IMG/VR virus record: IMGVR_UViG_3300028048_000080
Location: 60,581 to 124,580 of that record
DNA length: 64,000 bases
Source of the DNA: a virus
Taxonomy: Duplodnaviria; Caudoviricetes
Strand: one strand, 5' to 3'
Translations under genes and position numbers: made by a program
The notes under the pieces: model-generated
Told to the model about the DNA's origin: nothing
Databases searched by the model: none
Seen by the model: the letters and a program-made list of their open reading frames with translations, nothing else
In this document: one piece after another, positions 26,843 to 46,471 of the stretch
How the letters are laid out: each line of letters starts with the position of its first letter
How positions within the stretch are numbered: position 1 is the first letter of the stretch

Positions 26843-27141
26843 ATCGTAAACATCTCCTTATGGAATTTAAGTTGTTCATCAAAATATATTACCGCCGCGT
26901 ATGCGGCAATAAAATATGCCCCTCATTGCCATTTTGTAGATTACTTTATATAGGCGATAAAGGGCATAAAATATATAATTTGGTGCGAATTGTCTGACAA
27001 TTTCCTATAGGGCGTGAAAAATGTAAAAAATTTTTCGGGGTACCAGGTGTAAATGGGGAAAAAGCGGGAGGCAGAAATCGAGCCCCCACCCCCAGTTTCC
27101 CGGCACAAAGGTGACCGGGACATGATGAGGAGGAAAACATC

Positions 27142-28558: not shown

Positions 28559-30601
28559 ATGAAAAAGAATCGTTATTTAACCGACGTCAACGCTGTTGTG
28601 GAGATGGCTCGCGCCCATAAGCGCGTAGTCATTTCTAATCAGCAGGATTTTCAGGCGGTTACTCACCGTCTGACATCAAAGGCTGGTAAAATGTTCAGCG
28701 TTATGTCGCTGAATTATAACCAGTCTACCGGTTGGTTCTCGCCGATGGCGGTGAAAGTTCCGGTTTCACTGGAAACGGCGGAGCTGGAAGGTACGGTGCG
28801 CGCCGAAAACGCGCACATCAATAGCATCACTATGATGCCTATTGAACGATTCTCTCGGGCATACATTAATGTATGCTGCGGCGACAATCCGGACCTTTTA
28901 GACTTGCTGTTGCTCGACGGCAAGATTTATTGCGTCCTGAAAGTGGGCGCCAATGGGAAGAACGTGAAAGAATCGTTCTTCGTTCAGAGCGAAAAGGAAG
29001 GCGTTGCTCTGAATATCACCAATGGCAAGGAATGCCCGTTCACCGCCTTCGATAGGGAAGACGTACACGTACATGTGTACGGGCTTCTCGGGGTGTCTTC
29101 TCCCGGCCAGCAGAAACAGGGGGAAATCTCGCTTTATTGCGAGAATCTGGATGGTTTTGATGCCGTAGACCATCTGGACAACATGACTCACGGCATGTAT
29201 CGGCTTATCGCCAAGCATTATGCTGGGCAGCATGATAAGCTGAAAACCCTGGCACAGATTTCGACCCGTATCAGCCAGTTTAAAGCTGGCATGGTTCGGA
29301 CGAAACCTATCCAGGGTATTGCCATCTCTATGTTCAAAGTCAAGGATGTCCTTGACAATGAATGGATGGATGGTCTGCAGCTGTTCTCGGCCGAAGGTGT
29401 TGCCCGCGCTTTCAGCGACGATCAGTTTACGGTACTTCCGAGTGCCGTGGACGGAGCTGCCGCACAAGCTAGACCTCTTATCGTGAACAAAGGTTTGGGT
29501 TTGTGCATGCCGACTCAGTGCATCTTAACCATCTTAAGAGCGCTGGGGTGTGAGTTTGAATTCCTTGCTCAGGATGAACTCACGGATGAACAGTTTAAGA
29601 GCTACCAAAAGGCAGTTCTTAAAAAGTCCGGCGACTACAAGGGCAAAACGCTGGTTATTCTTCCGACTTTCAAGAAGGAAGATGGCAGCATTATGAGCGA
29701 CGAAGAGAAACTCATGCATATCGATGCGTGGGTGGATCTGAACGTACACAAAACTGTGTGCGATATTCGCCGCCCATTCACGGGATTCAATGTCATGGGC
29801 TTTGACCATGGCAAGAAAACCGTGGAGGAGGAAGCCAATACCTCCAATCAGTTATTGGCATCTGCGCTGTACGCTGATACTCCGCGTACTCTTGAGTATA
29901 TGCTCAATTGCACGAAGAAAGAGGCAGACAGCATTATGGCTAATGCCGTCCGCATGGATGGCCGGCGCCTGACAGCTAAAGACCTCTTAGGGGATTTGGC
30001 TATGGCTTCGCAGACAGCTTATCCAGAATTTGCCGTGCGCCATTGGGCGCCGTACTTCCAGGATAATCTGAATAAGGCCCTGGAAGGATTCGGTACGCGT
30101 CTTGAGAAACTGTCAGTTTCCACTGACGGTATCTATCTTAAGATTATTCCGGATCTTAGCCATTTCTTCGGTATCAACCTTCTCCAGTACGATGCCGAAG
30201 AGGGGGTATGCGAAGTGTTAGCACCGCAGCTTTCGAAAGAAGGCAAACGGCGCGCAATCGCTATCAAATACCCGAAGATGGCGACGGACGAATTCGCCAA
30301 GATTATTCCGGTTGCTCCGGAAGACTTGGTAGAACGTGCTCGCTACCATCTGGAGAATGGGGAAATCACCGAGGAACAGTTCGATGTACTGCAGCATCTG
30401 TTCTATATGCTTCATGACGGTATCATCATGGTGCCGGCTATCGAAGAATTGAAGAATATGCTTGCGGGCATGGACTTCGATGGTGATGCGCTTGTTGCTT
30501 ATTGTGATGAGACTTTGGTCGACATCATTTGGGCAATCAAACCCGTGGCAACTACTATTATGAAGGATAAAGACTTCGCCGTCTTTCAAGCTTCAAATTA
30601 A
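28559..30601 (+). CDS. Two-barrel RNA polymerase, cellular-RdRP/YonO-like, catalytic (N-terminal) part
   Basis: AGMDFDGDALVAYCD (DxDGD at 30473-30487). Upstream motifs in RdRP order: SSPGQQK, TRISQF, MDG, AQAR...KG, SNQ, IIPD, KYP. Confidence 0.85.
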   Translation: MKKNRYLTDVNAVVEMARAHKRVVISNQQDFQAVTHRLTSKAGKMFSVMSLNYNQSTGWFSPMAVKVPVSLETAELEGTVRAENAHINSITMMPIERFSRAYINVCCGDNPDLLDLLLLDGKIYCVLKVGANGKNVKESFFVQSEKEGVALNITNGKECPFTAFDREDVHVHVYGLLGVSSPGQQKQGEISLYCENLDGFDAVDHLDNMTHGMYRLIAKHYAGQHDKLKTLAQISTRISQFKAGMVRTKPIQGIAISMFKVKDVLDNEWMDGLQLFSAEGVARAFSDDQFTVLPSAVDGAAAQARPLIVNKGLGLCMPTQCILTILRALGCEFEFLAQDELTDEQFKSYQKAVLKKSGDYKGKTLVILPTFKKEDGSIMSDEEKLMHIDAWVDLNVHKTVCDIRRPFTGFNVMGFDHGKKTVEEEANTSNQLLASALYADTPRTLEYMLNCTKKEADSIMANAVRMDGRRLTAKDLLGDLAMASQTAYPEFAVRHWAPYFQDNLNKALEGFGTRLEKLSVSTDGIYLKIIPDLSHFFGINLLQYDAEEGVCEVLAPQLSKEGKRRAIAIKYPKMATDEFAKIIPVAPEDLVERARYHLENGEITEEQFDVLQHLFYMLHDGIIMVPAIEELKNMLAGMDFDGDALVAYCDETLVDIIWAIKPVATTIMKDKDFAVFQASN

Positions 30602-30669: not shown

Positions 30670-32856
30670 ATGGAAAAGAAAGTTATCAATGCCCTGAATG
30701 CTATCGTTACCGGCAAAAACTACCCCATCGATGAACGGGTAGTTTGGACGTATTTCTATACGTACCAGAAAAAACAGATTGACCCGGTTGGGATGGTTAC
30801 GAAAGATTTCTGGCCATTTCAAGCCATTATGTACGCTGTTGATATGTACAAGATGGTGCAGAGCTGGGAAGAGTCCCCGGCAAAGACGGCTTGGCTCAAA
30901 GAGTTGAGCATGTCTTTGGACATCGCTTTTAAGTGGCTCAGAAATGAGCTGCTCGTCGGTACGGAATACACTGACAAGAAAAGCAATTACAAAGTATTCC
31001 GCGCACCCATCTCCGAGAAAGAGATGACCGGCGCTCCGAAAGTGAGCGCCATCTGCGTACGCGCTGGCCGCAAGGCCATTAACCGTGCGCGCAAAATGTT
31101 CTTTGCGCCGCTGAGCCAGCAGGAAATGGCTAAGAGCCATGAGCTTAGCGAAGAAGAACTCCTGACCTTGGATAATGTCATGGCATTCTGCAAGGTCATG
31201 GAAAAAGTGGGTCGTATGAGCCAGGAAGGCACTATCGACTCCACCAAGAGCGGTGACGCTCCGAAAATCCTGCAGTACGTCGTCAAGACGGAAGCAGGGA
31301 AGAACGGACTCCGTGAGGTAACCCTTATGGAGGCTCTTAGCCGTGTCAGCTTGCTTAGCCGTAAATCCGAGAAGTTTGGCGTACAGCTGAACTTCGAAGC
31401 AGGCGAAGTCGAGGTTAATCATAATAAACGTATCTCTTATCAGGAGAAGAAACGTTACGTGATTGCCGATATGTTGGATAAAATCCGCATTAACGGCCTC
31501 GACAACGCTATTCCGGCCGATGTATCGGAGAAGGTATTCGCCGTAAAGCAGGCACTCTCCGATGAGCAGATGGCGATCTGCAGCCGTCTTGCTGAACAAG
31601 GTGTATACGCAGACGCTATTCGTGTTCTTATGAACATTTATCGCAACCTGCGTGATACCCAGAAAGCAGATATGCGTCAGGCAATCAAGGATGCCGGCAA
31701 GAATGAGGAAGCTCAGAAAGCCGGTATTGCCGTAGCCAAGGAACAGACCAAGGTAGCGTACAATGCGCTGTCCAATACGGTGCGTTCCCTGGTGAAAGGT
31801 ATGAGCCATGAACAGCTCATTCAGCTCGTACTTGGAGTAACGTTCAAGTATATGGGCAAGGACGCAAAACGTCCGAGCTCTTTCGCCGGGATTATCCTGG
31901 CCGAGGAGTTCTTCGAATACATCATGAGCTTGTATTCGGAAAACGAGGAATTCGCACTTACCCGCGATGAACTCGCTGCGTGCGACGCAGAGGACGGAGA
32001 AGTGGTAGAGTTTGTCGGCGGCGTAGTACCTGGTCGTGCTATCTTCTCTCAGGAGAGAAACGCTATCCCCGATGGCGTGTACACCGTTCGTAAGAATGGC
32101 AAACATGCTTGGGTAGAGGCCAGTGTACGTGATCGTATCGAAGCTCGTTTAAACGATGCTTATAATCCGGAAGAACTCATCTTCCAGACTGGTACGATTG
32201 CCACCGAGAAAGAAGCCGATGCTCTGCTGGATGCTATTAACGGCGCCAACGAGGTAGTTCTCGCTTCTCGGATGCATAATCCGAATGGTGGCAAAGATCT
32301 CTTCGACGTAGTTTTAGCTGACGGCAAAGCTGTCGCTCATTATCAGACCAAGGTGAAGAACATGGTCAAGAACGATAAGGGCGAATTGGTAGCCAACAAG
32401 GTCAACGGCAAAGACGATTATACGATTTCGCAGGCTCTTCGTAAGTTCTACTCCGGTAAAACTGGCGAGGTTGCGTTCGCGCATAAGCTGTCTTTCGGCG
32501 AAGGCAATAAGACTCAGTATGCCGTCATCGTAGTACTGAAAGGTACTAAGCAGATGCGCGCCAATGCTGTAGTTAAAGCTGCCGCCGAAGCCGTTGTTAG
32601 CGCCGATTTCGGAGTAGAGAAGAAAGCTGCTCCTAAAGCGTCCGTTAATAGCCGTCTTGCCGCTCTTAAGGCAAAGGCTGCGGACAGTGAAAAGGAAGAA
32701 GCTCCTGCTCAGCCCGAAGAAGCAGAAGAAGCTCCTCAGCTTACCTTAATGCAGCGCCTGATGGCGAAACGCAACAAGGTAGCCGAGAAGCCCGTTACTG
32801 ATAAGAAGCCCAGCCGACTCGCTCGCCTGCGCAAAGCTGGTGCTGACATTCAGTAA
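30670..32856 (+). CDS. Probable C-terminal part/second subunit of the RdRP/YonO-like RNA polymerase
   Basis: PVGMVT and SQEGTIDSTKSG match the G-x-I-x-N and (A/T)(V/I)D-x-x-K-x-G motifs that follow DxDGD in this family; own AGGAGG RBS. Confidence 0.7.
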   Translation: MEKKVINALNAIVTGKNYPIDERVVWTYFYTYQKKQIDPVGMVTKDFWPFQAIMYAVDMYKMVQSWEESPAKTAWLKELSMSLDIAFKWLRNELLVGTEYTDKKSNYKVFRAPISEKEMTGAPKVSAICVRAGRKAINRARKMFFAPLSQQEMAKSHELSEEELLTLDNVMAFCKVMEKVGRMSQEGTIDSTKSGDAPKILQYVVKTEAGKNGLREVTLMEALSRVSLLSRKSEKFGVQLNFEAGEVEVNHNKRISYQEKKRYVIADMLDKIRINGLDNAIPADVSEKVFAVKQALSDEQMAICSRLAEQGVYADAIRVLMNIYRNLRDTQKADMRQAIKDAGKNEEAQKAGIAVAKEQTKVAYNALSNTVRSLVKGMSHEQLIQLVLGVTFKYMGKDAKRPSSFAGIILAEEFFEYIMSLYSENEEFALTRDELAACDAEDGEVVEFVGGVVPGRAIFSQERNAIPDGVYTVRKNGKHAWVEASVRDRIEARLNDAYNPEELIFQTGTIATEKEADALLDAINGANEVVLASRMHNPNGGKDLFDVVLADGKAVAHYQTKVKNMVKNDKGELVANKVNGKDDYTISQALRKFYSGKTGEVAFAHKLSFGEGNKTQYAVIVVLKGTKQMRANAVVKAAAEAVVSADFGVEKKAAPKASVNSRLAALKAKAADSEKEEAPAQPEEAEEAPQLTLMQRLMAKRNKVAEKPVTDKKPSRLARLRKAGADIQ

Positions 32857-33208: not shown

Positions 33209-34600
33209 ATGAAAATAACAGAGTTAGAACTCATCGCCAGTGTGTGCGACGACTATGAATACGATACTATGTCATCCAATGAAGGCATGTGGTGCTTGGA
33301 TGTATATAAATACGACAAGGCGCCGCATGGAACCATTGCGTTTTATTCGGATGATAATATCCGATACGGGCTGACCTTCGACTATACGTTTGACGACGTA
33401 ACAAAGCTCCTGCAAGTTATGCAGGAGATGAAGGAAAAAGATGATTACCATGATGTGCAGTTCCCATTTGATGAACATGGTATCGATTTGGACGACTTTG
33501 AGTGGGTACCCATGCCCGCAAGATGCAAGGGACGGCATATCAATGCTGAAGAAGTCGAAGAAGTGAAGGTTGAAGAGTTGAAGGAAATCGCTATGAAAAC
33601 TATGACTATTGCTAACCAGAATAAAATTGCTGCCGCTATCAACAATGTTACTGCTAAAGCTGAGGAGGAAAAAGCCATGAAGAAGAATAATCGTTACGTT
33701 GTTGCTATGGTAATTGGTTCTGTCGTAAACATGACGCAGATTAACGCCGTTAAAACTTGGCTGACTAAGAACGCTAAAGCCAGCGTGGATATCATCGTTA
33801 GCGGCAATCCCATTCGCGTACAGAAGCTTGGCTGCGTCATTAACGAATTAAAGACTCCTATCCGCATGATTGGTTGCGGCGTAAAGAATAATGACATTTT
33901 TGCTTATACACATCAGGATGAACATCCTTGCGTATGGGCCATTAACCATAGTGACGTAGTGTTCACCATCGGCGATGGTATGGTAGTTACCGAAGCTAAA
34001 AAGTATGCCTTTAAGACCAACCGTAGCTACTATAGCTATGGCCGTCAATTCGTAGAATCCATTTGCAAGGGCCATTACGATAAAGCCGTTATTACGCGCG
34101 CCGATATCGTAACCACCAACGAGGCAAAGGCTATTAAGGCTGAAGAAGTCAAAGTTGTCGCCAAGCCCAAGGTAGACCTCATCGCCGTAGCCAAGGCCGA
34201 GATGGATGCCGCAAAGAAAGTGTATGATGCCGCCAAAGCTAAGTACGACAAGCTGGTAGCTGAATCCAAACCGGTAGCTAAGAAAGAGGTTGTCGGCCGC
34301 GGCAAAGAACTCTTCGTCGACGTTGAGCTCAGCTCCAATATGGGTGATATTACGAAGTCCTTTACGGAAGAGCAGAAGAAAGCCGAAGAAGAAGCGGTTG
34401 ATGAAGTCGTAGAAGCTTTTATGGCTAAAGAAGAATCCATGGCAGAACCTGTTAAAGCCGACTTCACCTTCGAAGGTAAGGGTTACAACGTGATAGTCAA
34501 AGAAGCTTTTGATGTAGAACTCTTTAACAGCTGTGATGCCGAGACTCAGAAGATGGTTATCGAAGAGTCTATGGCAGCGGGCCATATCGTAGCCGCATAA
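33209..34600 (+). CDS. Multi-domain hypothetical protein with possible SLOG-like domain
   Basis: RBS; internal in-frame RBS and ATG at 33677; NHSDVVFTIGDG...AKKYAFK. Confidence 0.65.
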   Translation: MKITELELIASVCDDYEYDTMSSNEGMWCLDVYKYDKAPHGTIAFYSDDNIRYGLTFDYTFDDVTKLLQVMQEMKEKDDYHDVQFPFDEHGIDLDDFEWVPMPARCKGRHINAEEVEEVKVEELKEIAMKTMTIANQNKIAAAINNVTAKAEEEKAMKKNNRYVVAMVIGSVVNMTQINAVKTWLTKNAKASVDIIVSGNPIRVQKLGCVINELKTPIRMIGCGVKNNDIFAYTHQDEHPCVWAINHSDVVFTIGDGMVVTEAKKYAFKTNRSYYSYGRQFVESICKGHYDKAVITRADIVTTNEAKAIKAEEVKVVAKPKVDLIAVAKAEMDAAKKVYDAAKAKYDKLVAESKPVAKKEVVGRGKELFVDVELSSNMGDITKSFTEEQKKAEEEAVDEVVEAFMAKEESMAEPVKADFTFEGKGYNVIVKEAFDVELFNSCDAETQKMVIEESMAAGHIVAA

Positions 34601-34656
34601 GATAATAGATAAGAGGGGCGCGCATGACGCCCCTCGTTATATTTAGGAGGTAAATT

Positions 34657-35169
34657 ATGAACAAGGATTTATCTGTTCGCCAGCTCAATGCTTTTAAGGT
34701 TGGCGCATGCAAGCTGGGCATGCGCACGAGTTCTGATTACGTCAGAACTATTGGCGCATTCTTTGACGATTACAAGTTAAAAGAGTGCGAATATGACGGC
34801 AAGCTCTGGGAGATCATTGTGATGTTTGTGTTGGGAGTGTTCAAGGCATCCATGAAAGAACGTGGCATAAATTTCTGGATAGTCGTTGATTCCAGCTTGG
34901 ATATCGCCCAGATTGACCTGGAAATAAATCACCGTCCGATACAGCTGAAGTATGATTTTTCAGCGTTAGCCATTACCGCCATACAGGATGTTCTGTCTTG
35001 TAGCGGCATCACCGTTGTAGGAGCCAAGAAAGGAGATGACCCAATAGATATTTTTCGCGACATACTAAAAGCGGCCGGACTCTCCGAAGAGGAGATCGAC
35101 CGCGAGATTGATATTAATCCTGGTTTTGACGCCGCCTGTGAAGTGTGGGATTGGTTCACAGGCAATTAA
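34657..35169 (+). CDS. Possible PD-(D/E)xK nuclease-fold protein
   Basis: GKLWE...LDIAQIDLEINHRPIQLK. Confidence 0.45.
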   Translation: MNKDLSVRQLNAFKVGACKLGMRTSSDYVRTIGAFFDDYKLKECEYDGKLWEIIVMFVLGVFKASMKERGINFWIVVDSSLDIAQIDLEINHRPIQLKYDFSALAITAIQDVLSCSGITVVGAKKGDDPIDIFRDILKAAGLSEEEIDREIDINPGFDAACEVWDWFTGN

Positions 35170-35172
35170 TGA

Positions 35173-35424
35173 TTACCAGGTGTGTTTTTTGACGGGAGCA
35201 CTATTTAATGCCCGTAGCACGCTATCCCTAGTAGGAGCAGATTCCTTACCGTTGCACAGCACGATGTCCCATCCTTCGCTGCATGAAGTTCCTGGCTGAA
35301 CTGCTAAGATTTCCTGATAGATCTCTTCCACGAGATTAAAGACGGACTGTTCCTTCGTCTTGTAAGCATTAAATGCGCTTACGCATTTGGGAGTAATGGC
35401 GGCGGCAAATTCATCGGTAAACAT
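35173..35424 (-). CDS. Lone antisense-oriented hypothetical protein (83 aa)
   Basis: AAGGA RBS before ATG 35424; has its own promoter. Confidence 0.65.
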   Translation of the reverse strand: MFTDEFAAAITPKCVSAFNAYKTKEQSVFNLVEEIYQEILAVQPGTSCSEGWDIVLCNGKESAPTRDSVLRALNSAPVKKHTW

Positions 35425-35457
35425 CAGGCATTCCTTCTTTCTCTTAATTGTAACTAC

Positions 35458-35486
35458 ATTGTAACACATATAGTTGATTAAGTCAA
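35458..35486 (-). promoter_or_regulatory. sigmaA-type promoter for the lone minus-strand gene
   Basis: TTGACT-17bp-TACAAT, with TG immediately upstream of the -10 (extended -10). Confidence 0.7.
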
Positions 35487-35520
35487 GAGAAAGTTTCCCC
35501 TACGGGGTTACCGTCCCTGC

Positions 35521-35709
35521 TCACATCCTACCCTTGTCGTCCATGCCCTCAACTCATCATACCTACCAACAAACTCACTTACTACTCACTCATCATTCGT
35601 CGCACAGCTCATCATATCCACTCATAAACTTACTATCTACTTACTCACCATACGTCGTCCTACTTCCTACTTCCAACATACTACCTACTCATTCCTACTA
35701 TCTACCTTC
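35521..35709 (+). repeat. G-depleted CTAC/CATC low-complexity tract 1
   Basis: About 8 G in about 189 nt; shares words with 39767-39881. Confidence 0.85.
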
Positions 35710-35718
35710 GTCGTATAT

Positions 35719-35980
35719 ATACGCCCGTTGATAGCGGAGGCATTCGTACCTCTTATTGGCAGTATCCATTTAGGAATACCTACGGTGCAAGTTAGTACCG
35801 TTTATTTGGATACTTCTAATCTTACGTCGTACGATAAGCCCTTTGGTAGCGGAGGTGGCTGTTAAGCAGTTACTTTCGCTACCAAACCGTCACTACGCAG
35901 TAGGTACTACCATCCACATCATTGGGTGGTTATAGGTAATACCTACCTTCGTCGTACGGATAAACCCCTTAATAGCGGGG
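35719..35980 (+). promoter_or_regulatory. Three copies of a 21-bp motif ATAMRCCCNTTNRTAGSGGRG (candidate phage-RNAP promoter or RNA repeat)
   Basis: Copies at 35719, 35834 and 35960, each preceded by CGTCGTA; a fourth at 39867. Confidence 0.55.
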
Positions 35981-36063
35981 AAACAGGTAATACCCGCAAA
36001 TCAAGTTCATGTGTATTGGCTGTCAACAGAAAGAGACAGCCAGGAAGGAAAAGGTGAATCACT

Positions 36064-36879
36064 ATGGCTAACACGGTATTTGTAAACGAACGTAACTACG
36101 ATGTAGCAATCATCGGCGCTACCGACACGAAAGGTCACGGCCGTCTGGGCTGGATTAACAATGAGGCCGGCGAGATGGTATTGGCTAAGAAGGAGTTTAC
36201 CTTCGAGGCAGGTCAGAACAACGAGCATCAGGCCGCTTGCGCTACTCTTGCCGCCGAGAAATTGGTAGGCATGGTCAGCTCGGGCGCCGTAAAAGAAGGC
36301 ACCAACGTACTGCTGGTACTGCCCGACTCCTTGGCACCGCGTTTCTTCGAAGCCCGTAAAGTCATGAATCAGCATGACCTCAGCTCCGATGACGCAATCG
36401 AGGCTGCCGTCGATGACGTTATCAGCACTATCAGCAAAGACTGGATGTCCGAGTATTGGCTCAATGCTTTGGCTGATTTGGCTTGCGCTTACGGCGCTGC
36501 TCTCGGAGCTGGAGCCAATGTCGGCGCCGTAAAGAAGAGTGAGATTTATGAGCGCGAGCTCGTAAGCACTCTCGATGGCGGTGCTATGGCTGAAGATGAG
36601 GCTATTAAAGAAGGCGCCAAAATCACCGTCGACAAAGACGGCAACATCGCCGAGACTGAACTCTACAAAGCTCAGTATCTCCGCGCTGGTACGTACACGG
36701 TCATTGACCGTAGCTACGATACCAAGAAAGGCAAGGTATTGTCTTTCAGCGTTAACCGTTGGGAAGCTATGGACGAGAAGTTCATTCCTAACGCCGTCGC
36801 CAACCTGATGGACCTCAACAAGGCTGTCAGCGACGCATTGCCGAAGGCTAAGCGCCTTACGGTCAGTGCCGAAGCATAA
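36064..36879 (+). CDS. Hypothetical protein (271 aa), weak RNase H-like pattern
   Basis: AAGGTG RBS; QNNEHQA...LLVLPDS. Confidence 0.75.
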   Translation: MANTVFVNERNYDVAIIGATDTKGHGRLGWINNEAGEMVLAKKEFTFEAGQNNEHQAACATLAAEKLVGMVSSGAVKEGTNVLLVLPDSLAPRFFEARKVMNQHDLSSDDAIEAAVDDVISTISKDWMSEYWLNALADLACAYGAALGAGANVGAVKKSEIYERELVSTLDGGAMAEDEAIKEGAKITVDKDGNIAETELYKAQYLRAGTYTVIDRSYDTKKGKVLSFSVNRWEAMDEKFIPNAVANLMDLNKAVSDALPKAKRLTVSAEA

Positions 36880-36954
36880 GAAGTTAAGGGAGCGCTCCTC
36901 GTAGGGGCGCTCCCGTTATAAGTTAATTCGTGAATTACAAAGGAGAAGATAGAT

Positions 36955-37290
36955 ATGTTTGACGCAAAATTAAGTGTAGAAGACCAGGCTAAAATCGCTC
37001 GTGTATCGGGTTCTTTCTTAGCTGGATTGTGCCGTGGTACGGCTACTGCCCTGAAGGGCACGGGCTTCGTGCTGGATAAGTCTACCTCTATCACGGGTAG
37101 TGCGCTGCACGCTATCGCCAACGGTATCGAAACTGCCGGCGCTGTCAGCTCGGGTGCCTGCTATGCCGGAGCCAAGTACATGGAAGACAAGGCTGAAGGC
37201 TATGACCTCTCGGATATCACCGATGAGCAGCTCAAAGCAGCTTTGGCAGCAGAACAGGAAGAAATCGTCGTTGAAGGTCAGCCGGCTTAA
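36955..37290 (+). CDS. Ala/Gly-rich hypothetical protein
   Basis: AAGGAG RBS. Confidence 0.75.
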   Translation: MFDAKLSVEDQAKIARVSGSFLAGLCRGTATALKGTGFVLDKSTSITGSALHAIANGIETAGAVSSGACYAGAKYMEDKAEGYDLSDITDEQLKAALAAEQEEIVVEGQPA

Positions 37291-37323
37291 CAGCTCGGCT
37301 TACACAGGAAAGGAAGTCAAGTC

Positions 37324-37545
37324 ATGAAAGTTGGAATGGATTGTCATAAAGATTATTCTCATATCATGGGCAACTCCCAGAATATCTCTCATGGTGACGT
37401 AACGTTGGTAATCAACGGCGTTACTATCGAGATACCTATCGGCTTCTACACTAAGAAAGGGCATTTACGGAAGAAGTATATGTCCGTGGTGGCAGAAGCT
37501 ATTCTCCAGGCGCGCGGCAAACGTCGCGTAGTCATCGCTGCTTAA
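37324..37545 (+). CDS. Small basic hypothetical protein
   Basis: AAAGGA RBS; ends before a terminator. Confidence 0.7.
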   Translation: MKVGMDCHKDYSHIMGNSQNISHGDVTLVINGVTIEIPIGFYTKKGHLRKKYMSVVAEAILQARGKRRVVIAA

Positions 37546-37593
37546 TCCATGAAAGTTCTTACTACCTAAGTTACCTCCTAAATATATATAGAT

Positions 37594-37640
37594 AATGGGC
37601 TGTCATCCTGCTTCGGCGGGATACAGCCCATTCTTTTTTC
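37594..37640 (+). terminator. Intrinsic terminator
   Basis: aatgggctgt/acagcccatt stem enclosing a cTTCGg loop hairpin, followed by cttttttc. Confidence 0.85.
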
Positions 37641-38620
37641 TAGTTAAGTTATTTCCCGGGAAAGGTAAGCAGTGGACAATAAGTCCAGTTCTTTTTTCGA
37701 GGCATAAGATAAGCCATTGATTTATTTGGTAGTGTTATTAGCCTAGTTAATTTTCTACTAGCACTACCAGATACATCAATGACTTTGAGAGGGGATAACG
37801 ACCCTTCTTATTCTCGCGGCGCATACCCTCAAACTATTTCCTCGACCCTACCACTACCTAAGGGACGCTTCCAGTATATCCAGACATATAGGGGAGCGAA
37901 GCGACCGACTGAAGCGTAAGCGTAAGGAGGGAGCTGTTAAGAAGAATGGTATATATCATAGAGTTAACATTCTTCTTTTACCCGTAGGGTTATTCTTATT
38001 AATAACGTACTATAACCCTCCAACCTAAAAAAGGGTATACTACGGGCTTTTATAATCTTTTTTATCGGTATCTCGAGGTTACGTTATTTTCGCGGCGGAG
38101 AAAGCTTACACTCTGTATACGGTTCTCTCAGTAACTCTATATGGGAAGTTCTTCTGCTGCGTCCTATCCAAGAGTGCATTGCCCGACTTGCGACGAGGGT
38201 TTTCTTGAGTTATCCGCGGCACTTCGCACTGGATCGCCTGGAACCTCGAGAGACATTCAAGACTCTCGCCAAAACCTATTTACTCGTGGAAGGTTGCCGC
38301 GATTGATTAATGCTGCCGATCATAAGTAAGTTTTGGCGGCAACCGTAGAGGATTGGGGTGCATACTTTCTTTAAAGAGAAAATATCTGTCATCGTATATC
38401 TAAGATAACAGATACAAAAGAGAAAAAACTGTCATAGATCACATAAGCTCGTACCCGAAGGTCGCCAAACTTCGTTTGGCTCTGAACAACTCCGGGTACG
38501 AGCCGCGTATCTCAGATCTCATATCGATCTTACGATGAATCTATTACCGCCTAAAAATAGCTATATTACATTCCGTAGAAAATTTTTTATAAATTTTTTT
38601 TCGTAGAAGCTCTTAGACCC

Positions 38621-38649
38621 TTGCAGGCTCTTAAAGAAGATAGTATACT
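38621..38649 (+). promoter_or_regulatory. sigmaA-type promoter with AT-rich UP element
   Basis: TTGCAG-17bp-TATACT; A/T tracts at 38578-38601. Confidence 0.7.
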
Positions 38650-38690
38650 GATTAAGAGATTTTAGTTAAGACTAAAGGAGAATATTCATT

Positions 38691-38876
38691 ATGGCCAAAT
38701 GTCCGAATCCATTGCGTAACCTAAAGAAGTCGGCGGCGAAGAACCATTCTTACCAGCCGCGCACTTACTATAAAGGCATAGATATAACAGAGTATAACTA
38801 CCGTCCTCCTACGGACGAGGAACTGGATACCTTCTTGAGACGAGTAGGTTTTCTTCCTAAGAGCATAGTATGGTAA
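38691..38876 (+). CDS. Small hypothetical protein
   Basis: AAAGGAG RBS downstream of the promoter. Confidence 0.65.
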   Translation: MAKCPNPLRNLKKSAAKNHSYQPRTYYKGIDITEYNYRPPTDEELDTFLRRVGFLPKSIVW

Positions 38877-38904
38877 CGTTATACACTATTACAATAGAAG
38901 GAAA

Positions 38905-39099
38905 GTGAATAAGATCATGACTACTATCCATTTCGCGGGCAAAGAATACCGGTTGTCGCCGGCAACGCCTTCTTATCAGCCCGTCGACCCCAGTGAAATA
39001 GTAATTAATGAATATGAGACTATTAACGGTGCTACGGAAGATACTAATAACGTTATTTCTTTTAAGAGATTGTACGGATATGAGCGTACGCAGCCTTAA
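38905..39099 (+). CDS. Small hypothetical protein
   Basis: AAGGA RBS, GTG start. Confidence 0.55.
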   Translation: MNKIMTTIHFAGKEYRLSPATPSYQPVDPSEIVINEYETINGATEDTNNVISFKRLYGYERTQP

Positions 39100-39422
39100 A
39101 TTACGATTATGCTTCTAGAGCTTCTCAGACGTTAATCGTTTTAACCCTACGGGTACCTACCCATGCTTCATATAAGAAACTCATCTGAGAGCTTCTAAAT
39201 GGTTAAATCTATAAAACGTAGAACGTTAGCATTATAGCCCAGTTTTATCTCTAGCGATTAAGATGAATGAAATCACGCTTGTCAGTGATAAGAGCCATTT
39301 TAACTCGTAGAAAGAGCGTACGTGGAAATTAGAGACGGTTTTGAACCCGTAGGGACGTTTTGACGAAAACGCTTAAAATTCATGAGTTTTTATACATGGA
39401 CCAGGTTTATACGGAGAATAAG

Positions 39423-39494
39423 AAGGTTAATTGGATAGCTTTGGAAGGTTTGTAGGGCTCATATAAAGGTTTATTGGATAGTTTTGGAAGGTTT
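39423..39494. repeat. 29-bp direct repeat x2 (2 mismatches, period 43)
   Basis: aaggttaattggatagctttggaaggttt at 39423; aaggtttattggatagttttggaaggttt at 39466. Confidence 0.85.
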
Positions 39495-39766
39495 ATTCAC
39501 GCCCGTTTCAACGATTTGAGCATCAGCGGGCGGCAAATACCTCACGTTAACAGCCTTCCGACCGGATAGAATCTATATTCTATAAGAAAAACCACATTTC
39601 TCGCCACGTACGCTGCTTCTAGGAGCGTTCTTGGATGGATATAATAAGTTACCCTCTAACACGAGCTATATAACGTTAGAGGCCGTTATAAGACTACTAC
39701 TACCGTCCTCACGATCATAACCAAAATGACGGATAAAGGGAAGGAGGGGGTAGGGGGAGGATAGGG

Positions 39767-39887
39767 CTAATCAACTCATACTACCTACTTTCACCCATCA
39801 TACCTACTAACTCATCATTTTTCAATTTATCTACTAAACCGTTACTACCTACTTTCCATCCTACCAATAAACCCCTTTATAGGGGGC
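39767..39887 (+). repeat. G-depleted tract 2 ending in the 21-bp motif
   Basis: One G in 39767-39881; ATAAACCCCTTTATAGGGGGC at 39867. Confidence 0.85.
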
Positions 39888-39928
39888 AGGGTAAGAGATA
39901 GAAAGATAGAAAAAGGAGCATACTTATT

Positions 39929-40141
39929 ATGGCTAATGAATATTTCGTGACCTACTTCGATAAAGAAAAGAATAAGAAAGTTGATTTAGGTCCCAGGAAG
40001 TTTTACGGGGATGACTGGAAAGAAGACGAAGGTTTCTCCAGTAAGGATGAGGCAGAACTGGCTATGGGCGCCGCGAAAAAAGCTGCCGTAACGCATCATG
40101 CCTACGGCGGCAATACCCATTTTATTATCACCCGTAGGTAA
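39929..40141 (+). CDS. Hypothetical protein
   Basis: AAAGGAG RBS. Confidence 0.7.
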   Translation: MANEYFVTYFDKEKNKKVDLGPRKFYGDDWKEDEGFSSKDEAELAMGAAKKAAVTHHAYGGNTHFIITRR

Positions 40142-40198
40142 GTAATAAGAGAGATAAAAGAGGGAGAAAATTAAGAACAGGAAAGGTGACAGAATATT

Positions 40199-40543
40199 AT
40201 GCCTATAACTTTAGCGGAAAGAATAGATGAGCTTAACGACTTAATCGAAAGAGTTAAGTCGAAGCAGGAAAGTTTAAAAGCCGCCGCCGAAAAGATGGAA
40301 ACGCTGCAGCGCGCAATTGACTATCTGGATAAAGAGGTGGAAGGCGAAGAAATTCCGGTTAGTACTACTGAATACGGATATCAGGGAGTGGGCGGCTACT
40401 GGGTATGTGATGACCTTCCCGTTTCTAAAGAGGGCTTTATTGAGTTCTTGAAGAAACAGAAAGAAGAATACCGCGCCGCCGCCGAAAAACTGGTTAATGA
40501 ACTGAATGAGGCCATGGATGGTAACAGTTATAAGGAAAGTTAA
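40199..40543 (+). CDS. Coiled-coil hypothetical protein
   Basis: RBS; heptad pattern. Confidence 0.7.
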   Translation: MPITLAERIDELNDLIERVKSKQESLKAAAEKMETLQRAIDYLDKEVEGEEIPVSTTEYGYQGVGGYWVCDDLPVSKEGFIEFLKKQKEEYRAAAEKLVNELNEAMDGNSYKES

Positions 40544-40567
40544 GCAAGAAAAAAGGAAGTAAGGAAA

Positions 40568-41125
40568 ATGGAAGAAGAAAAGAAAGTCATAAAGGAACTT
40601 AAGAGACTGGAACGTAATACGAAGAAAACCTATTCATTAAAGGAACTGGAGAAGATCAAGGTAGACGATATCCCCTTTCGGCTGGAACGTACCAGAGAAT
40701 GCGTCAAGCATAATAAAGGAGAGAACGCTAGGGACGTAGCCTTAATGCTGCCGGGTTACTTCATGACTTGGGGCGCTTATATATTAAGAGATGTATGGCG
40801 CACGTTCTTTTATCATTATGGCCGCGACTTAATGGAAACCCACTGGAGAGAGTACGGTAGAAGATACTGGCATATAACCGGTTTAGGTATAGAGCAGGCT
40901 AGAGCTATTAAATGCTTCGATGAAGGTACTAAGTTCGAGCCTATGCCTTACGAGCTGTTCGAATTATACGGTGAAGTATGGAAACATCAGCACGTATTGG
41001 ATGAAATGTCCAGATTAGGGGTGGAGGCGATGACTAAGCCCGCCACCGAGCTAGAGAAATCCATCAAGAAAGTGAAAAGATGGTGCGAAGATAACGACTA
41101 TCATAATGGACTGAGATACCTATGA
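40568..41125 (+). CDS. Hypothetical protein
   Basis: RBS; part of an operon. Confidence 0.7.
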   Translation: MEEEKKVIKELKRLERNTKKTYSLKELEKIKVDDIPFRLERTRECVKHNKGENARDVALMLPGYFMTWGAYILRDVWRTFFYHYGRDLMETHWREYGRRYWHITGLGIEQARAIKCFDEGTKFEPMPYELFELYGEVWKHQHVLDEMSRLGVEAMTKPATELEKSIKKVKRWCEDNDYHNGLRYL

Positions 41126-41454
41126 CGTTAAGAGAATACTACAAATATAACGTAAGGAATAGGATAAAGAGAAGAAGAGAAGAATATAACTACAGGAAGT
41201 ATAAGCCGGGACATGGCATGGAGACAAGAGGGAGACACTACGGTTTTGCCGCCCAAATAAGATTATGCTATATGAACATTGACCGGATACGGGAAATTGG
41301 TGAAAGACACGGTGATATATCCACGATGACCAGGCCATTAACTATCGCTGAGTGGAACGCCAATCTGGAAAGATTGATGAACGAAGTGTCGAGAGAAGCG
41401 GCATTCTTCAGAAACGTACCACGCTTCGTAAACGAAGATTTAGACGGGAACTGA
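41122..41454 (+). CDS. Basic hypothetical protein
   Basis: ATGA overlap with the upstream gene. Confidence 0.65.
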   Translation: MTLREYYKYNVRNRIKRRREEYNYRKYKPGHGMETRGRHYGFAAQIRLCYMNIDRIREIGERHGDISTMTRPLTIAEWNANLERLMNEVSREAAFFRNVPRFVNEDLDGN

Positions 41455-41480
41455 AAAGAGAGAGAGGGGGTCGTGGGAGA

Positions 41481-41843
41481 GTGACTTTAACCGAGTATTT
41501 TATCGTTAACAAGATCAATACGGAAGTTCAGTGTTACAGAGGAATAGACCTTCAATGTGTGCCGCGAACGGATTATCATAAGTATAAGGCTAAGCTGTTT
41601 AAATTGAACGGTACCGATTACTCTATCTGGATACCTAATAGACACTTGGATAAGGACGGTACGTTATTTTGCGGCGAAGATATCGATTACGTATTTAGAA
41701 GTGAGCGAAATAGAGAAGCCATCATCCGCGCCGGAATTAATCCGCATATATTCGACAGGGTGCATGACATGTATCCCCGCCGCCGCGGTATCCGGGAATG
41801 GGATGAATGGGTAGACTGGGCTAACATAACAATGAACGATTGA
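41481..41843 (+). CDS. Hypothetical protein
   Basis: GTG start after a G-rich RBS; start position uncertain. Confidence 0.65.
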   Translation: MTLTEYFIVNKINTEVQCYRGIDLQCVPRTDYHKYKAKLFKLNGTDYSIWIPNRHLDKDGTLFCGEDIDYVFRSERNREAIIRAGINPHIFDRVHDMYPRRRGIREWDEWVDWANITMND

Positions 41844-41861
41844 ATAGAGGAGGAGTTAATT

Positions 41862-42182
41862 ATGATGGGACAGCAGATAATGGTATATTTAGTAGTGGCG
41901 TCCTGCCATCAGCATGAAATAGGAGAATGGATGGGCTCTGCTGAGCATGAGCACGAAATATCCACTTCCATATTGGCTATAGGTCAATCCCGTAGCTGGG
42001 CAGAGCAATTTGCCCGCGAATACGTGGAAGAACTAGGTCTGGAAGACCTGGAAGTATCAGGCTCCTATTACGAAGGAGAGCGAAATGGCGCTCGAATAGA
42101 GATAAACGTGGTGGAAGCGCCGATGGGCGACTGCCATCACCTGGAACTTCGCCGCGAGTTCGTGTCGTATCAGATAGACTGA
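41862..42182 (+). CDS. Acidic hypothetical protein
   Basis: GAGGAGGAG RBS. Confidence 0.7.
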   Translation: MMGQQIMVYLVVASCHQHEIGEWMGSAEHEHEISTSILAIGQSRSWAEQFAREYVEELGLEDLEVSGSYYEGERNGARIEINVVEAPMGDCHHLELRREFVSYQID

Positions 42183-42203
42183 TATACGGGAGGGTAAGCC
42201 AAT

Positions 42204-42599
42204 ATGATTGACCGCAAGGAAGTCAAAAGATATATAGAAAAGGCCCATAACAAGGAGCTGTTAAAGATCCTGTTATGGGTAGTAATGGAAATGGTATGGC
42301 GCTGGGATGAAGAAGACGACGATAAGAAGGAAGAAGAAGTTATATCGGCGCCGGAAATCCCGCTAGAAGACCTGGATATCAGCGTACGTACCTTCAACTG
42401 CTTAAAAAGAGCGGGCGTGGAAACGTTGGAACAAGCTTGTCTGTTGCCGCCAGAGCAGTTATGGAACATAAGGAATTTGGGGCGCCGCAGCGCCATCGAA
42501 ATAGTGCAAGTCATGAAACAAAATGGCTATGACTACGAAGGGCGCTGGAATATCGACGCAGAAAGTTATGAAAGACCTACGGTAGAAAGGAAAGATTGA
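42204..42599 (+). CDS. Stand-alone RNA polymerase alpha-subunit C-terminal domain protein
   Basis: LEDLDISVRTFNCLKRAGV...L..IRNLGRRSAIEI is the canonical alpha-CTD signature; no alpha-NTD. Confidence 0.9.
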   Translation: MIDRKEVKRYIEKAHNKELLKILLWVVMEMVWRWDEEDDDKKEEEVISAPEIPLEDLDISVRTFNCLKRAGVETLEQACLLPPEQLWNIRNLGRRSAIEIVQVMKQNGYDYEGRWNIDAESYERPTVERKD

Positions 42600-42793
42600 A
42601 ACAAAAGATGATGAACGTAATTAACAGTTTTAAGAGATTAGCTTATAGAGTACAGCCTATTTCTCATATTAGAAAGTGAGGGGCGCGTAAGGAAGGTCAG
42701 GAACGTCGCGACCAGTATTACGCATTCGAGGAACAGCTCAAGAGTGCCCGCAAGGAATTCGGTTACGAGAGCAATAGAGACTGGAAACTGTAA
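42596..42793 (+). pseudogene. Small ORF interrupted by one in-frame TGA (42677-42679)
   Basis: The frame continues protein-like after the TGA: GARKEGQERRDQYYAFEEQLKSARKEFGY. Confidence 0.45.
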
Positions 42794-43079
42794 GAGAACT
42801 CAGGGGCGGCTTACGCCGCTACCCATAAACCATATCATACCTACCAATCATGAATCCCGTTTAACGTTTACTGATACGAACGTTAGGCGGGATATCGTTT
42901 ATATTTACGAACATTGTAATGTGAAATAGCTTTTAAAAAGAGGTATAGCCTAAATAAAGCGGCGAGAATGTGAGAAAAACCGACCGTTATAACGCGCTCA
43001 GTCCTTGACATATAAGGCTTAAAGCGTATTTCGTTTTTCTTGACATTCTCCCATGATTCTTATTAAGGAGGAGCCAATC

Positions 43080-43319
43080 ATGACTAGAGAACGTGCCTGC
43101 AAGGAATTGTTTCACTTATGGGGATATGCCTATATGAGTGGCTTCCCCGAAGCCGTAAAAGAAGCCAAGATGATGGAAAAGGAGTATAGCCTTATATTGT
43201 CGCCGCGCGAAATGCGTACCATCCGTGAATGGGGATACGGCGACAGCTATGAAGCATACGTAGGAGGATTATCGGGTTATACCGAGAACGATATGCTGCG
43301 CGACGTAATGTGCGCTTAA
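43080..43319 (+). CDS. Hypothetical protein
   Basis: AAGGAGGAG RBS before ATG 43080. Confidence 0.7.
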   Translation: MTRERACKELFHLWGYAYMSGFPEAVKEAKMMEKEYSLILSPREMRTIREWGYGDSYEAYVGGLSGYTENDMLRDVMCA

Positions 43320-43333
43320 GGAGACATGAGAGG

Positions 43334-43549
43334 ATGGATAAGATTAAGAAACTGCTGCCCATGCTTTTAATAGCCATAGTTATAGGCCAAGGATATGTTC
43401 CTCAAGGAACTACCACGGCTCAAGGCAGATTGCTTGCCCGCCGCGCGGCTATAGTGGATGTCTGTCACCAGTTGGGTGGAAGCCGAGGCATCCAGATATT
43501 GGATGAGTCATTTGACGGCAAGACCTACACGGTCAAAGCCGTAAGATAA
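43334..43549 (+). CDS. Small secreted/membrane protein
   Basis: MDKIKKLLPMLLIAIVIG signal-like N-terminus. Confidence 0.6.
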   Translation: MDKIKKLLPMLLIAIVIGQGYVPQGTTTAQGRLLARRAAIVDVCHQLGGSRGIQILDESFDGKTYTVKAVR

Positions 43550-43590
43550 AGTGTTATATGTTGAGCGAAAGAAATAGGAGGAAAATCACC

Positions 43591-43971
43591 ATGGAAATGA
43601 ACGTTAACGTAAGCAAGAAAGTATTGGTTCGCTACGCAGAAGTTGTCTGCCGCATCGCCGACGAGAAGATTGACCTGGAAAAAGAAGTATGGAATAAAGA
43701 ACTTCAGGGCGATGTTAAGAAGGGGCCGTTCGCATTACGCATGTATGAATCCGTACATGAGGAAAATCGTACGGTGCATTTCGCTTACGGCCTGAACGAT
43801 GAATTCATTATGGACGTACTGGATATCGTAGATAAGCACAGCGACAGCCTGAAGTCCATCGTTAAAGGCTTTGTGGCTATCTATAAAGGTACTAAAGGTT
43901 TCGTGGCAGGCTTCACCAAGGATGTTAAGGAAGCAGCCAAGAAGTATAATGCGCCGCGAAAAGCCGCTTAA
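43591..43971 (+). CDS. Hypothetical protein
   Basis: AGGAGG RBS; ends RKAA. Confidence 0.75.
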   Translation: MEMNVNVSKKVLVRYAEVVCRIADEKIDLEKEVWNKELQGDVKKGPFALRMYESVHEENRTVHFAYGLNDEFIMDVLDIVDKHSDSLKSIVKGFVAIYKGTKGFVAGFTKDVKEAAKKYNAPRKAA

Positions 43972-44019
43972 TTAATTGATTAAGTCAAGTATATAGAATA
44001 ATCAGAGGAGGAGTTCACC

Positions 44020-45233: not shown

Positions 45234-45392
45234 ATGGTGAAAAAAGTAAAGAAGCCCGCCGGTAGTTACCAGACAGATAGAGCGATCAGCAAGGGCTTTA
45301 GCGCCGCCTATCTTTTAACAGCCTTGATGGGGACGGGTTCCAAGCAGGTTTCCATTGCCCGCAACTTGTGGAACCTTTTCGGTAGAAGATGA
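45234..45392 (+). CDS. Small basic protein (not in ORF track)
   Basis: GGAGGAGG RBS; ATGA overlap with the primase. Confidence 0.6.
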   Translation: MVKKVKKPAGSYQTDRAISKGFSAAYLLTALMGTGSKQVSIARNLWNLFGRR

Positions 45393-46471
45393 ATTACAAC
45401 GGTTGGATAGCAGAGTTCGGCGGGAAATCATCGGAGGGATTCTTCCGCCGAAACATCTACTGCTTGCATGATGAGAGTTATTTATCCAATAAATGGAGCT
45501 TTATCAAGGAATGCCAGAATACCGATGTTTACGAATGCGCTTACAAGTATGAAGATACCAATTACGGCACCTGTCGTATGATTGGCGAGCCATACTTAGA
45601 TTTCGATATTGATGACATAGAAGACGAGGCAAATTACCGCAGATTGGTAAGGGCCGTCAAATATGCCGTCAATTATATCGAAAATGCTATGGCCATACCG
45701 GCCGAACAGCTAAGGCTGTACTTCTCGGGAAAGAAAGGTTTTCACGTAATCATCCCGGGAGAAATAGTAGGCATCGAACCATCGGAAAAGCTTAACGAGG
45801 ATTTTAAGCATTTCGCGCTGGGCATGGCATTCCTGCAGTGCGGTCGCGACGTAGCGAAAACCGCTAAGACTTTATTGGATACGGGCATTTACGACAGAAA
45901 AAGGCTGTTCCGTATCGTAAACAGCATCAACTCTAAGTCCAATCTTCGTAAAGTACCTATCAGTATAGATCAGTTATACGATTTTTCTTACGAGGATATA
46001 AAGGAGTGGGCCAGCAAGTCTCATACAGTCCTGCCCAAAGCCAATAGTTTTAATATGAAGGCTAAGAGAGGCTACGAGACGATAATGGAAGTTGGCCGCG
46101 AATATATCATGCTGCGCGACGGCGTAGTCAAGAGGCATAGCAACAGGAGAATAAAGCTAAAAGAAGGAGAACTCTTAGAGCTTTTGCCCTGTACCAAGAA
46201 TTTATTGGAAACGGGCGCCATTAAAGGTTTCCGCAACCACGCTTTATTCGCCTTGGCGTCAAGCCTGGCGCAATCCGGTTATAAGCCGGACGATATTTAC
46301 CAGATGGCTGACGAATGGAACAGTCGTAATGAAGAACCGCTGGCAGAACGGGAAATACAGACTACGGTCAACTCAGCTATTAACAGCTATGAATCAGGTA
46401 TGACCGTCGGCTGCGGCAAGTATAAGGACTTGGGTTACTGCCAGGACAACTGCAAGTTATTGGAGGACTGA
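45389..46471 (+). CDS. Archaeo-eukaryotic primase (primase-polymerase) with PriCT-like domain
   Basis: YLDFD, FSGKKGFH, DTGIYD..RLFR; RNHALF...WN...PL.EREI..TVNSA; terminal Cys cluster. Confidence 0.9.
   Translation: MNYNGWIAEFGGKSSEGFFRRNIYCLHDESYLSNKWSFIKECQNTDVYECAYKYEDTNYGTCRMIGEPYLDFDIDDIEDEANYRRLVRAVKYAVNYIENAMAIPAEQLRLYFSGKKGFHVIIPGEIVGIEPSEKLNEDFKHFALGMAFLQCGRDVAKTAKTLLDTGIYDRKRLFRIVNSINSKSNLRKVPISIDQLYDFSYEDIKEWASKSHTVLPKANSFNMKAKRGYETIMEVGREYIMLRDGVVKRHSNRRIKLKEGELLELLPCTKNLLETGAIKGFRNHALFALASSLAQSGYKPDDIYQMADEWNSRNEEPLAEREIQTTVNSAINSYESGMTVGCGKYKDLGYCQDNCKLLED

Follow-up and report, generated by a model that had tools for sequence, protein, structure and literature searches.

What purpose is served by non-coding DNA that has been almost emptied of one base on one strand and that lies directly in front of a new operon? 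The question is raised by the 64,000-nucleotide stretch of viral DNA analysed here (the window), which comprises bases 60581–124580 of a 124,580-bp contig (IMG/VR record IMGVR_UViG_3300028048_000080) judged to be ~54% complete. The source is an uncultured jumbo myovirus of ~255 kb. The plus strand of the window carries two such tracts, tract 1 (35521–35722) and tract 2 (39767–39881), each running into a conserved motif that is a candidate promoter. The tracts are tentatively read here as arrays of promoter half-sites which lack a start, have been purged of G and would act at the level of DNA, in front of the first promoter in each cluster; this reading is preferred, at not quite an even chance.

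G accounts for 8 of the 189 nt at 35521–35709 in tract 1 (binomial P ~1e-12), which is C-rich and built of three degenerate units, and for 1 of the 115 nt of tract 2 (39767–39881; binomial P ~3e-12), which closes with a motif copy. These counts match exactly those of the original prediction, and a genome-wide scan of G content placed the five longest G-free runs of the contig inside the two tracts. They are also the only places, on either strand of the contig, where 60-nt windows hold two G or fewer. In 50 shuffled genomes the minimum never fell below 5 G or C per 100 nt, against an observed value of 1. Base composition in the tracts is 32–37% C and 3–5% G. Plus-strand RNA of both tracts has a minimum free energy of 0 kcal/mol, which bears out the earlier proposal of a repeated cis module unable to pair with itself; the spacers of the motif copies, by contrast, are strongly folded (z −3.8 to −5.3).

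The tracts were also supposed to be untranslated, and this holds. Tract 2 has no start codon within any open frame, the sole start in tract 1 is a TTG without a Shine–Dalgarno sequence, and the base period of the tracts lies near 4, with none at 3. A coding role was rejected on the absence of 3-nt periodicity and of any conserved open reading frame (ORF) or reading frame in the tracts. A search of Rfam over 34000–44000 at E ≤ 1 gave no match, and ARAGORN found no tRNAs in the window.

Both tracts lead directly into a copy of the motif, as originally described; these copies are P1 and P4. In the window the motif reads CTACC-ttcgtcgtaNNN-ATAAnCCC-N6-7-GCGGRG. Its core pattern has six matches in the contig and the full motif has four (35709–35745, 35825–35860, 35950–35985 and 39862–39889), all of them, in 124 kb, on the plus strand and ahead of plus-strand genes. 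Taken with wider limits on the same strand, the copies are P1 (35700–35745; CTACC-N12-ATATACGCCC-gttgata-GCGGAGG), P2 (35816–35860), P3 (35941–35985; ACCTACC-N12-ATAAACCCC-ttaata-GCGGGG) and P4 (39847–39889; ACCTACT-N13-ATAAACCCC-tttata-GGGGG), the last lying 40 nt ahead of an ATG at 39929. A CCTACC/CTACC upstream element precedes the ATAAACCCC core at a fixed N12–13 in eight of the eight copies of the window's clade (P1–P4 of the window, P1–P3 of the related locus L122 and P4 of L126), and likewise in P3 of L118. The N12 of L126 differs in sequence and keeps the same length. The distal tract words stand at no fixed distance from the core.

Over 28 motif copies, the G frequency is low (0.08) across the 30 nt that lead up to the core and climbs to 0.44 immediately beyond. 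The 80 nt upstream hold a mean of 6.6 G in first copies and 12.6 in inner copies, with ~20 expected (Mann–Whitney P = 4e-4), where the copies and the first and inner classes were picked by eye and the relatives are not phylogenetically independent. RNAs beginning at the G-run open with stable 5′ hairpins and GGAGG-like polypurine; that of P2, from TAGCGG onward, opens with a 16-bp hairpin (z = −5.3). The motif varies clade by clade along with the polymerase. Position, orientation, 5′ hairpins and clade-specific variation together suggest that the motif is the promoter of a phage polymerase, with transcription presumably starting at the G-run. A possible fifth, divergent copy (39155–39195; ACCTACC-N12-AAGAAACTC-atct-GAGAG) sits right after an CCCTACGGG hairpin and has no long G-free tract. 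The AGCGG within the motif is also the Chi sequence of Bacillus. A Chi function was rejected, as AGCGG is not conserved in L122, L118 or L120.

Conservation was followed in 12 informative metagenomic phage loci, recovered through the polymerase and a downstream protein, with relatives reaching 254–260 kb. Polymerase identity to the window is 98% in L137, 88% in L138, 87% in L122, 80% in L123, 57% in L118, 55% in L120, 54% in L130 and L131, 44% in L143, 37% in L140, 27% in L146 and 23% in L152; L143 and L140 appear to be one phage type. L126 and L127 were used for the tract 2/tract 3 region. Similar DNA was not found among GenBank phages, a 14-mer scan of IMG/VR gave chance matches only, and protein-seeded searches of IMG/VR gave no relatives.

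All 12 loci have the same order: CCCCTACGGGG-type hairpins or terminators, a G-poor tract of 50–205 nt, motif copies and then genes. The position of the tract is thus conserved among relatives, and the module borders promoter clusters and new operons on their upstream side, as had been proposed. Each cluster in the relatives has two or three motif copies, in a clade-specific version of TATAAACCCC-N5-6-G-rich. The window's own CCCCTACGGGG hairpin (35497–35507, plus strand) is of the C(UACG)G tetraloop type and has no U tail; the same element flanks the tract on the left in L122, L123, L118, L120, L130, L131, L146 and L140. The relatives' tracts are mostly C-rich (C 25–48% against a background of 20–25%; G 2–7% against 21–28%), with YC doublets at 1.5–3 times background in most tracts measured. 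Nowhere else in the loci L118, L131 and L126, on either strand, is G as depleted as in the tract. Tract 2 and P4 are jointly present in the window and L126, and jointly absent at the syntenic spot in L118. As a separate observation, an ORF with a good Shine–Dalgarno sequence and ATG begins before the hairpins and runs through the G-poor tract in L131 (9887–10078) and L130 (11899–12165); only its first 14 residues (MEFxRxRPLRGPGA) are conserved.

The words of the tracts tie them to the motif. The sharing of words seen at the outset was confirmed: CATACTACCTACT occurs at 35677 and 39777, ATCATACCTAC at 35556 and 39797, and ATCATACCTACCAA at 35556 and 42834. Allowing up to two mismatches, the window has 9 occurrences of CATACTACCTACT where 1.0 would be expected; six of the nine fall in the tracts, always on the plus strand. 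Three degenerate units of 55–61 nt (35542–35602, 35603–35657 and 35658–35713), composed of the words CTCATCAT and ACCTACY and each terminating in CGTCG, make up tract 1, which is followed by three units of 115–126 nt, each a full motif plus a structured spacer. The tract words ACCTACY, CTCATCAT and CTAACTC have their counterpart in the motif's upstream half, and the tract units align with the motif units, all of them terminating in the motif's CGTCG. In L152 and L131 the tract is similarly assembled from degenerate copies of the upstream half of its own clade's motif. The core of tract 2 (39774–39819, 46 nt) consists of two CAT..ACCTACT words 19 nt apart. It is identical at 45 of 46 positions in L126, where the whole alignment averages 73% with large indels, and it looks like a promoter of the L120 type (ATACTCACTAACTCTTTTGTGG) with other bases in place of the start Gs. 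A related word, ACACCTACTAACTCA, recurs in L140 at 37% polymerase identity.

Such an anatomy could also arise without selection. The tracts would then be decaying remnants of tandem promoter duplication and of slippage in a quasi-tetranucleotide (CTAC/CTCA/TCAT) simple sequence, G-free because the duplicated upstream half of the promoter is itself G-free, and without a function of their own. The identity of tract words with motif words fits this account, as do the base periodicity near 4 and the lack of helical phasing of the words. The window and L137 have one ~59-nt unit of tract 1 that L122 and L138 lack, which points to tandem expansion, and G residues have been both gained and lost in the tract between the window and its 98% relative. 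Neutral decay would not, however, be expected to leave a G-poor tract in a constant position across clades with unrelated tract sequences, to conserve the 46-nt core far better than its flanks, or to make the tract the most strongly G-depleted part of the locus on either strand in L118, L131 and L126. Duplication and slippage explain the origin of the tracts and not their retention at the same place in all clades, and a purely neutral origin and fate is considered quite unlikely.

In the preferred reading, the tracts would form the non-initiating upstream part of promoter clusters for an RNA polymerase of the RNA-dependent RNA polymerase (RdRP)/YonO-like two-barrel type encoded by the phage. 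Each array would consist of degenerate, tandemly duplicated upstream halves of the promoter (ACCTACY, CTCATCAT, CTAACTC) without the G-rich start segment, the non-template strand being kept free of G. It may bind the polymerase or a specificity factor without permitting a start, and would in this way serve as a feeder or buffer for the first real promoter (TATAAACCCC-N5-6-G-run). The array could also be a buffer, free of structure and of starts, which separates the preceding terminator hairpins from the cluster. Among the three functions first suggested for the module, a protein-binding array, here linked to the phage polymerase, is the best supported, through the match between tract words and the upstream half of the motif, the fixed N12–13 spacing in the window's clade and the near-invariant 46-nt core. 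An element linked to the promoter, acting as DNA or by sequence-specific recognition, is favoured because of this sequence-level evidence.

The polymerase itself is a candidate encoded by two genes, ORF1 (28559–30601) and ORF2 (30670–32856), in the plus-strand region. The structural genes, including those for the tail sheath and the large terminase, lie on the minus strand up to ~27 kb of the window, and from there onward the gene strand is plus. The motif GMDFDGD at the end of ORF1 is invariant across 10 homologues, and the language-model clusters nearest to ORF1 are viral 'RNA-dependent RNA polymerase' clusters carrying the PF05183 RdRP family (score 0.96). These features suggest a split RdRP/YonO-like two-barrel enzyme. 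A tblastn search found no homologues of it among GenBank phages.

Several observations weigh against the half-site reading. An hhalign comparison of the polymerase with YonO gave a probability of 2.9%, its AlphaFold2 model was unusable (predicted local distance difference test 48), and a PDB profile search found no RNA polymerase match; the start site is inferred, and so are the motif's role as a promoter and the assignment of the polymerase. Four motif copies per half genome are few for a general phage promoter. P2 and P3 have no such tract, and a promoter as such can therefore do without it. In L120, L130 and L131 the words change while the tract stays poor in G and enriched in C, which looks like a compositional constraint at the single-strand level and not like protein sites. 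The choice of motif copies by eye and the shared ancestry of the relatives, given above, count on the same side.

The compositional character of the tracts suits an explanation at the level of RNA, in which a read-through transcript would carry the tract as an unstructured, C-rich, G-poor and untranslated site resembling a Rho-utilisation (rut) site. Rho would stop transcription before the phage-promoter cluster, and the RNA would be trimmed back to the stable CCCCUACGGGG hairpin. Such an insulator is possible, if doubtful. Composition is kept while sequence turns over (C 25–48%, G 2–7%, YC doublets 1.5–3 times background), the tracts are 50–205 nt long with a folding energy of zero, tract 2 has no start codon, the strand asymmetry points to a single-strand function, and the tract follows immediately on the polymerase operon and on stable hairpins without a U tail. 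In L118 and L152, however, canonical intrinsic terminators, each a hairpin plus a T-run, stand immediately 5′ of the tract, and the persistence of the tract behind them argues against a need for transcription from upstream. The 45/46 identity of the core and the keeping of words across relatives of 37–98% are not expected of rut sites, the L152 tract is A-rich with just 25% C, and the tract abuts the first promoter, with the result that release would fall inside the promoter cluster. The host, moreover, is probably a member of the Bacillota, the large terminase being closest to those of Moorella phage MTATph1 and Bacillus jumbo phages, and Rho plays a lesser role in that phylum. The Rho-type insulator put forward in the original prediction thus fits by composition and leaves unexplained both the conservation of sequence and the tracts behind terminators in L118 and L152.

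Another possibility, the single-strand loading site of the original prediction, has indirect support: the tract may work as melted DNA. Negative supercoiling would open it, it would stay single-stranded because neither strand can fold back, and an RdRP-like polymerase preferring single-stranded DNA, or a replisome using it as an origin unwinding element, would load there; the first template C-run would then set the start. The gp66 enzyme of a crAss-like phage transcribes single-stranded or denatured DNA efficiently, does not transcribe double-stranded M13 DNA and transcribes its native double-stranded genome weakly, and QDE-1 works on single-stranded DNA with RPA (10.1101/2020.03.07.982082). 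The variant in which single-stranded DNA is the point of entry remains attractive because of this preference of a related enzyme. The tracts of the window also rank among the 0.7–1.4% least stable 100-bp duplex windows, the folding energy of the plus strand is zero, and the G frequency switches at the presumed start (0.08 before, 0.44 after). The relatives do not, however, share this low duplex stability: their tracts rank anywhere from the 0.1 to the 21 percentile and that of L131 reaches 52% G+C, and an unwinding element as a conserved property was rejected on this ground. P2 and P3 lack such a zone. Nor are there signs of an origin: the cumulative GC-skew minimum lies at ~27 kb, no initiator gene stands beside the tract, and the primase gene (45389–46471) is 10 kb away. 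A single-strand entry zone is accordingly judged improbable. A further reading builds on the half-site arrays: the split polymerase of this phage family would not choose its start through a classical closed promoter alone, and would first be held on a G-free 'landing pad' of disarmed promoter copies, the template of which has no C, and then start at the first template C-run after the TATAAACCCC core. This reading is regarded as unlikely.

The left border of the module introduces a further candidate. A host promoter of the sigma-A/sigma-70 type with a TG element (TTGACT-17-TACAAT; 35457–35486, minus strand), kept as TTGACT-17-TATAAT in L122 and L123, drives a divergent small minus-strand gene with a likely start codon at 35424 and the ribosome-binding site GAAGGAA. 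The product of this gene, as a repressor or activator, could be what binds the array; so could a partition (centromere-binding) protein, or an RNA-binding protein recognising CAUACUACCUACU-type words. Same-orientation direct repeats (9 against 1.0 expected) and the presence of a regulator-sized, divergent gene with a host-type promoter adjoining tract 1 speak for a factor of this kind, as does the resemblance of tract words to the anti-Shine–Dalgarno tail of 16S rRNA (ACCUACUUUC compared with ACCUCCUUUC). The small gene, however, is absent in L118, L130 and L131, where the tract is still there, no DNA-binding or partition family was found among the neighbouring proteins, and the words show no helical phasing. 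Binding by a factor other than the polymerase or its partner is most unlikely.

The grouping of three related tracts in the original prediction overstates the third. This element is a 32-nt G-free run (42820–42851, plus strand) with one ATCATACCTACCAA word, and it is not unusual by composition, since ~46 G-free runs of 33 nt are expected per genome. It is tied to tracts 1 and 2 only through its 14-mer word and its position; its ATACCTAC is conserved in L127. Just 5′ of it lies a GC hairpin without a U tail (42805–42819, plus strand; GCGGC-TTAC-GCCGC), with the counterpart GCGGC-TTC-GCCGC at the same place in L127. The hairpin described after this run was confirmed at 42854–42893 (plus strand), before the next operon: it has 16 pairs including G-T and a T-rich tail, shows compensatory changes in L127, and is terminator-like, possibly an intrinsic terminator or an attenuator. 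A stand-alone protein consisting of an RNA polymerase alpha C-terminal domain (42204–42599; PF03118, E = 3e-17) is encoded just before tract 3.

Structured elements are frequent around the promoter clusters. CCTACGG occurs 21 times in the contig, with ~11 expected, and nine of these fall within 35.5–42.6 kb. Mini-hairpins of the CCCTACGGG type, with a UACG tetraloop, are found at 35497–35507 and 39144–39154 (plus) and at 37980–37990, 39345–39355 and 40130–40138 (minus-strand sense); they cluster in the early non-coding region, border the module on its left in relatives with as little as 27% polymerase identity, and may be phage-specific terminators or stabilisers of RNA ends. The P1–P2 spacer (35746–35815) is a conserved candidate structured RNA, with an outer stem GTATCCA/TGGATAC (GTTACCA/TGGTAAC in L118) around a terminator-like ACGG..CCGT hairpin followed by TTTATTTGG (35782–35810, plus strand). 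The hairpin stem shows covarying changes in L122 and L118, folding of the spacer reaches z = −3.8, and P1 may consequently yield mainly a short RNA of ~70–80 nt. A leader hairpin (36018–36041, plus strand; GGCTGTC..GACAGCC; z = −4.1) lies directly 5′ of the ribosome-binding site of the first gene after the P1–P3 cluster, a conserved 271-aa gene (36064–36879, plus strand). It covaries to GGCTGGC/GCCAGCC in L118 and GGCTGAT/GTCAGCC in L120 and probably stabilises the mRNA or controls its translation. The 271-aa product and the neighbouring small proteins gave no informative family, except for the alpha C-terminal domain protein.

A G-rich polypurine tract with runs of GGG to GGGGG (39736–39766, plus strand) adjoins tract 2. 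This G-quadruplex-like or polypurine element is kept in the same non-coding block in L126 (2872–2910) and L118 (19565–19585), with a placement relative to tract 2 that varies among relatives; pairing of 39736–39766 with tract 2 was rejected as no better than shuffles (z = −0.29). On the minus strand at 39797–39825 the complement of the CATCATA words gives −10-like TATGAT hexamers, and a 10/12 sigma-70-type match (TTGAAA-17-TATGAT) points leftward inside tract 2, its −35 part not being conserved in L126. A well-conserved non-coding block of ~0.6–0.8 kb, starting CCAGGAGGAATTTT..TAGTTCACCCT, is found in L126 (1540–2150), L118 (18630–19250), L131 (13430–13930) and L120 (~20640–21370) and looks like a large structured RNA; the window has small ORFs in its place.

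Towards the minus-strand genes, TTATGCCCTTTATCGCCTATATA(A/G)AGTAATCTAC is conserved 5′ of the first structural gene (26950–26990 in the window, ~4911 in L118, ~3829 in L122). It has GCCCTTT in common with the plus-strand motif and could be a late promoter. Contig positions 34831–59030, 5′ of the window, are taken up by three giant ORFs in a row on the minus strand (2829, 2960 and 2195 aa). Only the first has a family match, in a region resembling the PHROG 'endolysin' family 20474; none of the three matched an RNA polymerase family or contained a DxDGD motif.

The layout has parallels in well-studied systems. At the left end of T7, the short-repeat array SRL is followed by the tandem early promoters A1, A2 and A3. 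Both there and here, a strand-asymmetric array of short direct repeats lies just 5′ of three strong tandem promoters, ~115–125 bp apart, at the start of an early block. The T7 array adjoins a terminal repeat and the promoters there are host-type; here the promoters look phage-specific and the repeats like half-copies of a promoter. In assembled contigs of 124, 196 and 254 kb the module has an internal position. The rut sites of lambda tR1 (rutA/rutB) are similarly C-rich, G-poor, unstructured and untranslated, span at least 60–80 nt and lie at an operon boundary, but the tracts described here are far more strongly depleted of G, have conserved words, abut a promoter and persist behind intrinsic terminators. 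In eukaryotes, the CT element and FUSE of c-myc are upstream elements that bind single-strand-binding proteins with KH domains. They share with the tracts direct repeats and a pyrimidine-rich, G-free strand 5′ of a promoter, and they work melted; unlike in that system, no KH-domain protein was identified here.

Promoters of the N4 virion RNA polymerase (PMC4496689) are comparable in that three early promoters stand in tandem and in that several motif copies have the potential to fold into a stem of 5 bp closed by a 3-nt loop (CCGTT-GAT-AGCGG and CCCTT-TAT-AGGGG). Unlike in N4, copies in L120 and L146 have no hairpin potential, wobble pairs favour the non-template strand and the polymerase is not T7-like. 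An obligatory hairpin promoter of the N4 kind was rejected, hairpin potential not being conserved and no T7-like RNA polymerase having been found.

The closest functional comparison is with phages that use non-canonical two-barrel RNA polymerases. In the available parts of the work on P23-45 gp96/gp64 (10.1101/2022.12.01.518664) and SPbeta YonO (PMC5467207), a short motif likewise lies 5′ of early genes; unlike here, those parts contain no mention of a base-depleted upstream tract. In SPbeta the polymerase gene also lies a few kb 5′ of the promoter region and of a long non-coding block. The non-coding gap after yonO-yonN is similar in size to the relatives' 0.6–0.8 kb block, with no sequence similarity to it, and the yonN-yonK region has no detectable sequence similarity to the window. 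As far as the available text of the YonO study goes, promoter recognition was left open and the promoter is still undefined (PMC5467207). The early transcripts of gp66 in the crAss-like phage have no common upstream motif (10.1101/2020.03.07.982082).

In this phage family a defined and conserved candidate promoter is combined with an upstream tract unusual in lacking one base. If Rho enters at the tract, this would be a natural insulator of unusual purity; if the tract acts on the polymerase, it would represent a new kind of promoter architecture. Either outcome would be useful as a genetic part, and the motif and tract are short enough for direct work in vitro. Should the landing-pad version prove true, base composition over 50–200 bp would be part of the definition of the start site for this polymerase family, and the tracts would provide a first handle on how YonO-class enzymes find their promoters.

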